Below are positions 1 to 1,221 of a stretch of 1,221 nucleotides of DNA, piece by piece. This DNA is from Escherichia coli. Lineage in GTDB: Bacteria > Pseudomonadota > Gammaproteobacteria > Enterobacterales > Enterobacteriaceae. Made by a program: the position numbers and the translations under genes. The stretch is from the NCBI RefSeq assembly GCF_003334765.1, contig NZ_QOWT01000082.1, one strand, 5' to 3'. The notes below the pieces were generated by a model that saw only the letters and a list, made by a program, of their open reading frames with translations, had not been told where the DNA came from and did not search any database. Numbering within the stretch: the stretch's first letter is position 1; every line of letters starts with the position of its first letter.

Positions 1-26
1 TGTAGATTCAATCTGTCAATGCAACA
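1..26. repeat. Terminal inverted repeat, distal to transposase start (IRR in IS30 convention)
   Basis: Plus strand 1-26 TGTAGATTCAATCTGTCAATGCAACA compared with the reverse complement of 1196-1221, TGTAGATTCAATTGGTCAACGCAACA: 23/26 identical, mismatches at positions 13, 14 and 20 from the tip. The first 12 bp are perfectly conserved. Confidence 0.93.
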
Positions 27-1159
27 CCCCTTTCAATTATCTCTTTCGGTGTTTTGAACTTCAGTGTCTTTCTCGGTCTGTTGTTTAGCTGAGCAGCAAC
101 CAGATCTAGTTCATGTTGAGTATATTGGGCAAGACATGTCTTTTTAGGAAAGTACTGCCGAATTAGCCCATTTGTGTTCTCATTTGTTCCCCGCTGCCAA
201 GGACTCTGAGGATCGCAGAAGTAAACTTTAACGCCGGTGCTGACAGTAAATTCTAGATGTCTGGCCAGTTCCATTCCTCTGTCCCATGTCAGTGATTTTC
301 TGAGTTCTGACGGTAAACTCAGGAATTTGTCGGTAAGAGCCTGATTTACTGAGACAGAATCTTTGCCCCTGAGTCTAAGGATGATCGTATAACGTGATTT
401 TCGGTCTACAAGTGTGGCTATATGAGAGTTTTTTGTACCTGAGACTAAATCGCCCTCCCAATGCCCCAGAGAGCGTCTGTTATCGATATTTCGGGAACGT
501 TCGTGAATTGGTGTTCCGTTCACTATGTTAATCGTACCTCTTTCGCCTTTGCGGGTATGACGCCTGCCATGGCGAAGGCTATGCGACCGTCGCAGATGCT
601 GTATATTCAGGTGGTGTAGCGCTTCACGGCTACGAAAGTACAGCGTTTTATAAATTGTCTCAGGTGATATTCGCAGCGTTTTTTGACGTGGTTTTGTTCG
701 CCTTAACCATCCTGATATTTGCTCTGGAGACCATTTCATCTCCAGCTTTTCCAGAACAAGCTTTCGCAATGGTAAATTTTGATCCAGTAAGCACGGTTTT
801 GGCCTTTTCGCCATTCTGTTGGCTCGGTTATTAGCATCAACAGCTTTGTAATAGCGTCTGCCCCGATTACGCTGAACTTCACGTGAGATCGTCGAAGGAC
901 TGCGATTCAGCGCAGTAGCTATCGCACGAATGCTCATTTTGGCTGACAAACCAGCTCGTATCTCCTCGCGCTCAGACAGTGTCAGGTGAGCTACAGCCCG
1001 CTTATGCTCATGGGGTTTTATGCCGCCAGTATCCCTTAACATAGTGAAGATCGTTCCGGGTTTTGAACCCAGGATATTCGCTATTTCACTGAAGCCTGTT
1101 CCGTTCTTCCATAGTTCAAAAACAGAGGCTTTTTCCTCTGCTGTAAATGTTCGTCTCAT
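8..1159 (-). CDS. insI: IS30-family DDE transposase (InsI-like), 383 aa
   Basis: Seen in sequence: uninterrupted 383-codon ORF, ATG at 1157-1159 (minus) and TGA stop at 8-10 (minus) inside the inverted repeat. Very basic, Arg/Lys-rich protein. N-terminal helix-turn-helix-like segments (approx aa 20-45 GTGFSEIANILGSKPGTIFTMLRDTG, and aa 68-95 RAGLSAKMSIRAIATALNRSPSTISREV). Candidate catalytic residues by my residue count: D237 (HWEGD, codon 449-451), D293 (TWD, codon 281-283), E327 (TNE, codon 179-181). Spacing of 33 residues between the second D and E matches the DD(33)E signature of the IS30 family (established knowledge). The translation matches my recollection of E. coli InsI essentially throughout; not verified by search. 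Confidence 0.96.
   Translation of the reverse strand: MRRTFTAEEKASVFELWKNGTGFSEIANILGSKPGTIFTMLRDTGGIKPHEHKRAVAHLTLSEREEIRAGLSAKMSIRAIATALNRSPSTISREVQRNRGRRYYKAVDANNRANRMAKRPKPCLLDQNLPLRKLVLEKLEMKWSPEQISGWLRRTKPRQKTLRISPETIYKTLYFRSREALHHLNIQHLRRSHSLRHGRRHTRKGERGTINIVNGTPIHERSRNIDNRRSLGHWEGDLVSGTKNSHIATLVDRKSRYTIILRLRGKDSVSVNQALTDKFLSLPSELRKSLTWDRGMELARHLEFTVSTGVKVYFCDPQSPWQRGTNENTNGLIRQYFPKKTCLAQYTQHELDLVAAQLNNRPRKTLKFKTPKEIIERGVALTD
14..19 (-). promoter_or_regulatory. Outward-facing consensus -35 hexamer (TTGACA) inside the distal inverted repeat
   Basis: Plus strand tgtcaa at 14-19 = TTGACA on the minus strand, 13 bp from the element tip and directed out of the element. Established knowledge: IS30 forms a strong promoter when two ends are joined with a 2-bp spacer, with -35 in one inverted repeat and -10 in the other; such a -35 can also pair with a fortuitous flanking -10. 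Confidence 0.6.
179..451 (-). other. DDE catalytic core of transposase (D237-D293-E327 by my numbering)
   Basis: Codons read directly from the sequence: plus-strand atc 449-451 = GAT (D), gtc 281-283 = GAC (D), ctc 179-181 = GAG (E). Residue context HWEGD...TWD...(33 aa)...NE fits the DD(33)E pattern of the IS30 family. Confidence 0.75.
875..1102 (-). other. N-terminal DNA-binding region of transposase (two HTH-like motifs, approx aa 20-95)
   Basis: Inference from translated sequence: helix-turn-helix-like segments in the first ~100 residues. Established knowledge: IS30-family transposases carry N-terminal HTH DNA-binding domains. Boundaries are approximate. Confidence 0.6.
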
Positions 1160-1167
1160 TCAAAAAA

Positions 1168-1172
1168 CCTCC
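1168..1172 (-). promoter_or_regulatory. Shine-Dalgarno sequence (GGAGG) for the transposase
   Basis: Plus strand cctcc at 1168-1172 = GGAGG on the minus strand, separated from the ATG (1157-1159) by an 8-nt spacer TTTTTTGA. Confidence 0.8.
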
Positions 1173-1202
1173 GCAACCCCATGTTTTCACATAACTGTTG
1201 CG

Positions 1203-1208
1203 TTGACC
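1203..1208 (+). promoter_or_regulatory. Outward-facing -35-like hexamer (TTGACC, 5/6) inside the proximal inverted repeat
   Basis: Plus strand ttgacc at 1203-1208, 13 bp from the right tip, directed out of the element. It is the counterpart of the TTGACA in the other repeat, degraded by one of the three repeat mismatches. Confidence 0.35.
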
Positions 1209-1213
1209 AATTG

Positions 1214-1219
1214 AATCTA
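1214..1219 (-). promoter_or_regulatory. -10-like hexamer (TAGATT) at positions 3-8 of the proximal inverted repeat; -10 half of the predicted end-to-end junction promoter
   Basis: Minus strand reads TGTAGATT from the tip. If the distal end is abutted with a 2-bp spacer, TTGACA + 13 bp + 2 bp + TG gives a 17-bp spacer to TAGATT (4/6 match to TATAAT, with T1, A2 and T6 preserved). In the isolated element this hexamer has no -35 within the element. Confidence 0.45.
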
Positions 1220-1221
1220 CA

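Follow-up and report, generated by a model that had tools for sequence, protein, structure and literature searches.

IS30 has been under study since the 1980s. It is a copy-out-paste-in element: the transposase nicks one end and connects it to the opposite end through a bridge of 2 bases, and replication then gives an IS30 minicircle or a tandem dimer with the left and right terminal inverted repeats (IRL and IRR, each 26 bp) abutted over 2 bp (PMC9333248). Integration uses this abutted IRL-IRR junction as its active substrate; it generates a 2-bp duplication and favors two kinds of target, IS30 ends and hot spots that are nearly palindromic (PMC9333248). A more distant relative, ISApl1, mobilises mcr-1 and shares the 2-bp duplication and the circle intermediate with IS30 (PMC10916398).

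The 1221-base stretch of DNA analyzed here (the window) is very probably one full-length, structurally intact IS30 copy of the IS30 family; the strand given is the reverse complement of the usual orientation, and the single gene encodes a 383-aa DDE transposase. The element and its exact allele are already known; this is ordinary IS30, annotated in hundreds of genomes.

Three other relatives have the same length as the window and the same first 11 nucleotides at both ends. IS30H, from a Klebsiella michiganensis plasmid, also has the outward-facing TTGACA and a 383-aa transposase, but its nucleotide identity to the window is 89.8% and its transposase has Arg52. IS30-like elements from Aeromonas and Edwardsiella retain TTGACA in IRR at nucleotide identities of 76.3% and 75.7%, respectively, and both have Arg52. 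The Edwardsiella element encodes a 383-aa transposase, as in the window, whereas in the Aeromonas copy the transposase frame is interrupted by stop codons. ISApl1 matches the same family model, has the DD(33)E triad in aligned columns and conserves the second helix-turn-helix region (HTH2); it differs in being a shorter element whose transposase has 37% amino acid identity and lacks the first ~55 residues, including the first helix-turn-helix region (HTH1).

Identity and ends of the element

The length of the window is the curated length of IS30A, IS30C, and IS30D, the mobile-element features of E. coli K-12 MG1655 that carry insI1-3. These copies have the same 26-bp ends, an ORF at canonical positions 63–1214 that encodes 383 amino acids, and the same DDE and helix-turn-helix (HTH) residues as the window. 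Compared with IS30A, the window has 3 substitutions in 1221 bases (positions 176, 379, and 1005); compared with IS30C and IS30D, it has 2 (positions 467 and 1005). No indels or frameshifts were found in any of these alignments, all of the differences fall outside the terminal repeats, and those at window positions 176 and 467 are silent. An earlier note on this DNA had described it as a complete, intact IS30 and a known element, not substantially divergent from the reference, and the alignments bear this out: both terminal repeats are present, the 383-aa ORF is uninterrupted, and the exact sequence is widely annotated as IS30. Near-identity to InsI was also expected and was found, but the protein is not identical to any K-12 version. 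It differs by R52H only from IS30C and IS30D and from the common plasmid form (WP_001254932.1), and by R52H and V261L from IS30A; all three K-12 copies have Arg52 where the window has His52, and Val261, in place of Leu261, is peculiar to K-12 IS30A.

Annotated IS30 copies in many E. coli chromosomes and plasmids are 100% identical to the window across the 1221 bases. These copies, which include those in E. coli ATCC 11775, S88, and plasmid pE105-1, are annotated as "IS30-like element IS30 family transposase", WP_001254876.1. A megablast search of 5426 complete E. coli genomes detected IS30-like sequence in 3825; the median number of places in a genome is 2, and the highest is 23. IS30-bearing plasmids numbered 1363, from Escherichia, Citrobacter, Klebsiella, Enterobacter, Salmonella, and others. 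The G+C content of the window is 45%. A phage origin is unsupported, as a search of a phage collection returned only one 280-bp IS30 fragment. The practical use of these results is in annotation: the window can be labeled as IS30, intact, with a minus-strand transposase, and any sequence that this copy disrupts in its source contig is best regarded as an insertion allele.

Table 1. Features of the window, with positions counted from its first base
Feature	Position	Strand	Basis
Right terminal inverted repeat (IRR, canonical orientation)	1..26	.	Inverted-repeat pair, 26 nt, 88% complementary; same as K-12 IS30A/C/D ends
Transposase gene (ORF-A / insI), 383 aa plus TGA stop	8..1159	-	ORF scan; NCBIfam NF033563; annotated WP_001254876.1
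Perfect -35 hexamer TTGACA inside IRR, pointing outward; upstream half of predicted junction promoter	14..19	-	Sequence; in silico junction
Codon E327, predicted catalytic Glu, 33 residues after D293	179..181	-	Invariant column; aligns with ISApl1 E251
Integrase-core (rve, RNase H-like) catalytic domain, codons 229–320	200..475	-	Pfam rve, E 9.8e-14 (sequence-profile match)
Codon D293, predicted second catalytic Asp	281..283	-	Invariant column; aligns with ISApl1 D217
Codon D237, predicted first catalytic Asp	449..451	-	Invariant column; aligns with ISApl1 D163
HTH2, main helix-turn-helix DNA-binding region, codons 58–98	866..988	-	Pfam HTH_38, E 1.3e-18
Codon 52, CAC (His) versus CGC (Arg) in the common IS30 transposase	1004..1006	-	One derived amino acid difference
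HTH1, weaker helix-turn-helix region, codons 6–41	1037..1144	-	Pfam HTH_38, E 0.014
Shine-Dalgarno-like GGAGG, 8 nt upstream of ATG; putative function	1168..1172 (canonical 50–54)	-	Read from sequence
Left terminal inverted repeat (IRL, canonical orientation)	1196..1221	.	Upstream of transposase gene; flanks of ten copies diverge right after 1221
TAGATT inside IRL, putative -10 hexamer in an IRR-IRL junction with a 2-bp spacer	1214..1219	-	In silico junction

The two terminal repeats are complementary at 23 of 26 positions, with 3 mismatches; the chance of at least 23/26 complementarity at fixed ends is approximately 1.6e-11. The 26-bp inverted repeats claimed in the earlier note are thus present at the exact ends, but their pairing is imperfect. 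The first 11 nucleotides of IRR, TGTAGATTCAA, are invariant in relatives at 76–90% identity, and the transposase stop codon together with the last 6 codons sits within this repeat. The window ends at the repeat tips and has no flanking sequence of its own, as had been noted; boundary and duplication checks were made on ten identical or near-identical copies elsewhere. When these copies were fetched with their flanks, similarity stopped exactly at window bases 1 and 1221, which confirms the repeats as the true element boundaries.

Seven of the ten copies are flanked by a perfect 2-bp direct repeat (AC, GT, AG, GC, GT, and others), one has an imperfect repeat, and two have rearranged flanks. The imperfect case is the copy in agaC of strain O157:H16 98-3133, which has the exact window sequence with flanks AC–IS–AT. 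Compared with the intact agaC gene of K-12, these flanks show a 2-bp overlap on the target dinucleotide AT, and the insertion has produced a 2-bp duplication with one base changed. The copies with rearranged flanks are K-12 IS30D and that of WCHEC035148. In both, the two flanks are unrelated and each is half of a different hot spot, which indicates recombination between IS30 copies.

Transposase, junction promoter, and internal features

The single long ORF of the window reads from position 1159 to 8 on the minus strand, with an ATG start and no internal stop, and occupies canonical positions 63–1214 with the same offsets as insI1. With its transposase ORF on the minus strand, a point on which the earlier note was silent, the window runs opposite to the canonical direction of IS30. 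The NCBIfam model NF033563 (transpos_IS30) was matched along its entire length (model positions 1–267 of 267) with a score of 277 bits, against a cut-off of 80. A PDB sequence search returned no relative at E ≤ 0.01.

The window protein was aligned with eight plasmid-derived IS30-family transposases at 29–47% identity: those of ISCfr4, ISApl1, and ISLpl1 and of elements from Rhodococcus, Acinetobacter, Lactiplantibacillus, Enterococcus, and Rhizobium. D237, D293, and E327 are invariant across all nine sequences, and their spacing, D237-(55)-D293-(33)-E327, fits the family rule of D-(54–61)-D-(33)-E (PMC2516522). The ISApl1 residues D163, D217, and E251, numbered from a shorter published start codon, fall in the D237, D293, and E327 columns, respectively; alanine mutants at each of these three positions abolished circle formation (PMC10916398). 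Four residues of HTH2 (R64, T90, E94, and R97) are also invariant among the nine family members. The DDE triad and N-terminal HTH regions had both been described as intact, in agreement with the invariant triad and with the Pfam HTH_38 matches. The N-terminal extension, consisting of the first ~55 residues and containing HTH1, is common only to ISCfr4 and the Rhodococcus element among the relatives aligned; the six other members begin near IS30 residue 53–58.

In an in silico IRR-NN-IRL join, TTGACA and TAGATT are separated by 17 nt and read into the transposase gene. This arrangement matches the known behavior of the IS30 IRR-IRL junction, which forms a strong promoter, Pjunc (PMC9333248). 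The outward-facing TTGACA in IRR is kept in the IS30H, Aeromonas, and Edwardsiella relatives (76–90% identity), and in an integrated copy it could add to a hybrid promoter with the flanking DNA. The older literature on IS30 describes a resident promoter and internal terminators. A simple sigma-70 scan of the window found no stand-alone promoter for the transposase gene, which is compatible with a weak resident promoter. No intrinsic terminator was found in a scan of the window, and Rfam returned no match for either strand at E ≤ 1.

The window holds the parts needed for the copy-out-paste-in cycle, the steps of which are taken from the literature. The N-terminal HTH region would bind the 26-bp terminal repeats, and the DDE domain would nick one end of the element and then join it to the opposite end. 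Host replication would convert this product into a circle or a tandem dimer, with a 2-bp spacer separating the two repeats. The junction would assemble the strong promoter (TTGACA in IRR, 17 nt, TAGATT in IRL) and so drive transposase expression; it would then be pasted into a nearly palindromic hot spot or another IS30 end, with a 2-bp duplication as the result.

Several other internal features were considered and set aside. A perfect 13-nt internal inverted repeat (519–531 and 1036–1048) was taken as chance because 6% of codon-shuffled ORFs reach at least 13 nt, and because the repeat decays in relatives (13, 11, 11, and 9 nt) without consistent compensation. Plus-strand antisense ORFs of 59, 52, and 45 aa were rejected as genes, since stops are gained in relatives. 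A 64-aa plus-strand ORF (1020–1214) stays open in IS30H and in the Edwardsiella element but is closed by a stop in the Aeromonas copy, and a 35-aa ORF (237–344) is open in all four sequences compared. These two were also rejected as genes: they overlap a strongly constrained coding region and are unannotated in K-12 and the other full-length copies examined. The sole annotation exception is in ATCC 11775, where a short PGAP pseudogene fragment overlaps the element at its left-repeat end.

The His52 allele and alternative readings of the window

Arg52 was found in every relative examined, namely K-12 IS30A/C/D, IS30H, ISCfr4, and the Edwardsiella, Aeromonas, and Rhodococcus elements. The basic stretch that separates the two HTH motifs contains residue 52; neither of the Pfam HTH cores nor the catalytic domain includes this position. 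Replacement of a conserved Arg in this stretch may reduce or alter DNA binding by the His52 protein.

The distribution of the allele was assessed by megablast of a 55-nt query, centered on the variant base, against the 5426 complete E. coli genomes; every 28-mer seed of this query contains the variant, and therefore only the His52 allele is seeded. The allele is present in 372 of 5426 genomes (~7%), at 524 places, of which 506 are chromosomal and 18 are on plasmids, with a median of 1 and up to 8 places per genome. In a full-length search sampled at 60 evenly spaced ranks, 5 of 60 matches were 100% identical to the window, consistent with the His52 frequency. Many of the occurrences represent the same inherited site near fec, at ~4.1–4.2 Mb. 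Copies with the exact window sequence were seen in at least four contexts. One sits inside IS911 next to the fec genes, and another, on an IncF plasmid, is inserted in the opposite orientation at that same IS911-like site; a third is in agaC, and a fourth is at a rearranged site. His52 is found at each of the two chromosomal IS30 places of WCHEC035148. An allele found at several sites, with up to 8 copies per genome, has evidently moved. IS30 transposase can act in trans (PMC9333248); therefore, the spread of the His52 allele does not prove autonomy. We predict that the window copy is transposition competent despite His52, and the multi-site spread of the exact allele supports this prediction.

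It is unlikely that the window copy is structurally intact but functionally impaired, with R52H weakening the transposase so that the element moves only with the help of an Arg52 copy in trans. Such help is a documented property of the IS30 transposase (PMC9333248), Arg52 is conserved in all relatives examined, and His52 is the minority form, found in 372 of the 3825 IS30-bearing genomes at a median of one copy each, often by descent from the single site near fec. However, the allele also occupies many different chromosomal coordinates, 18 plasmid places, and up to 8 places in one genome, and WCHEC035148 has His52 at both of its chromosomal IS30 places. The exact allele has also inserted into agaC in a strain-specific event, and the altered residue sits outside the Pfam HTH cores and the catalytic domain.

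Improbable too is the idea that the window was cut at the repeat tips from something other than a solitary insertion: a tandem (IS30)2 dimer, a compound transposon bounded by IS30, or a copy with recombination-swapped flanks. IS30 normally gives rise to dimers and compound transposons (PMC9333248), and the non-matching flanks of 2 of the 10 copies surveyed (K-12 IS30D and WCHEC035148) point to recombination between copies, but the other 8 are simple insertions with a 2-bp duplication, one of them imperfect, and junctions between inverted repeats are reportedly very unstable (PMC9333248). We give almost no credence to the window being some other family member (IS30H or another named isoform) instead of IS30. 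Relatives with the same length and the same tips do exist (IS30H at 89.8% identity; Aeromonas and Edwardsiella elements at ~76%), but the window has just 2–3 differences in 1221 bases from curated K-12 IS30 and is 100% identical to copies annotated as IS30; IS30H is ruled out by its identity of only 89.8%. A single, structurally intact IS30 copy remains the preferred reading.

We tentatively raise a further possibility, which we consider doubtful: since the basic linker between the HTH motifs otherwise has a conserved Arg at position 52, the His52 allele could differ in function from other IS30 variants, for instance in its activity or its choice of hot spots; separately, imperfect duplications, such as the AC/AT pair in agaC, could keep a base of the donor circle-junction spacer. 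If true, this carry-over from the donor spacer would allow the donor copy to be traced, in this case to the IS911-embedded copy with AC flanks. The R52H allele, the imperfect duplication, and insertion downstream of the IS3-family frameshift signal are modest side leads for transposition specialists. With respect to the last of these, repeated IS30 insertions were seen in IS3-family elements, a short distance downstream of the frameshift signal.

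Recurrent insertion sites and their flanks

The same dinucleotide, located 3 nt past an A6G/A7G run, has been used again and again by IS30, as seen in the flanks of the copy within IS911 near fec (L001 2976-3000 and 4222-4246), of K-12 IS30A (L004) and of further copies (L007, L008, L009 and L010).

Comparison of the flanks placed IS30 in both orientations at the recurrent A6G/A7G sites, which shows that these insertions struck a hot spot independently of one another. The IS30 target in IS911 looks like the IS911 programmed -1 frameshift window, which is composed of an SD-like GGAG, AUU and A_AAA_AAG (PMC4066793). 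Insertion of IS30 at this position would part the slippery heptamer of IS911 from its downstream stem-loop. PMC4066793 itself prints no IS911 sequence, so the equivalence of the target and the frameshift window is tentative.

IS30 target sites and features that lie in or overlap the transposase gene (positions are those of the window; brackets in the sequences mark the target dinucleotide)
Feature	Position	Strand	Sequence
IS30 site in IS911			...GGAGAATGAAATATTAAAAAAGGCT[AC]CGCGC...
Second, similar IS30 site			...ATATTAAAAAAAGCC[GC/GT]GGCG...
Antisense ORF, 64 aa	1020-1214	+
Antisense ORF, 35 aa	237-344	+
Perfect 13-nt inverted repeat, separation 504 nt	519-531 / 1036-1048
Codon 52 (R52H)	1004-1006

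No target duplication was found around K-12 IS30D (L006 7460-8680) or the WCHEC035148 copy (L002 3001-4221). At each, one flank is half of the IS911 hot spot and the other is half of another, in IS600 or unrelated sequence. Because each flank is half of a different hot spot, the arrangement indicates that IS30 copies have recombined or inverted with one another at these two sites in the past.

Imperfect duplication at agaC

The duplication around agaC::IS30 of O157:H16 strain 98-3133 is imperfect: the flanks are AC and AT (L003 2999-3000 and 4222-4223), and comparison with intact K-12 agaC (L022) identifies AT as the target dinucleotide. The odd flank, AC, is the same dinucleotide as the duplication around the IS911-embedded IS30. 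It would fit the carry-over, after mismatch repair, of one base from the donor's 2-bp circle-junction spacer, a mechanism for which is sketched in PMC9333248; alternatively, the AC/AT difference could be a point mutation that arose later.

Features of the transposase gene

R52H is the sole derived amino acid change of the window transposase, and Arg is kept at this position in all relatives examined. The His52 allele was present in 372 of the 5426 complete E. coli genomes, at no more than 8 copies per genome.

Both antisense ORFs overlap constrained coding region. In IS30H and the Edwardsiella element both ORFs remain open; the Aeromonas element keeps the 35-aa ORF open and has a stop within the 64-aa ORF. 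The copies examined carry no gene annotation over either ORF, save one short PGAP pseudogene fragment in the ATCC 11775 copy, which overlaps the 64-aa ORF's end of that copy. The 13-nt inverted repeat was judged to be chance, because 6% of codon shuffles reach it and it is not conserved in relatives.

IS30 in other genomes, a phage and a plasmid

Among the phage records, Escherichia phage phi456 alone matched the window: at 54505-54784 it carries 280 bp from the interior of IS30 (window 108-387, 98.9%), and the annotation there is a hypothetical protein. Plasmid 5 of Aeromonas salmonicida A449 holds a 1221-bp IS30-like element (L020 301-1521, 76% identity), without annotation in the PLSDB table; its repeat tips are the same as the window's, stop codons lie in the transposase frame and the longest ORF is 309 aa.

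Three O157:H7 chromosomes (H132-H134) have 6-7 IS30 places apiece. The best-matching place of each aligns in two pieces with 96% query cover and spans ~1175 bp, which suggests that IS30 copies of this lineage carry an internal deletion of ~46 bp. IS30 disrupts nfsA in two isolates (H103 and H120) and mhpC in Keio strain JW5503, a K-12 laboratory derivative (H105); in these cases the K-12-type allele has inserted recently.
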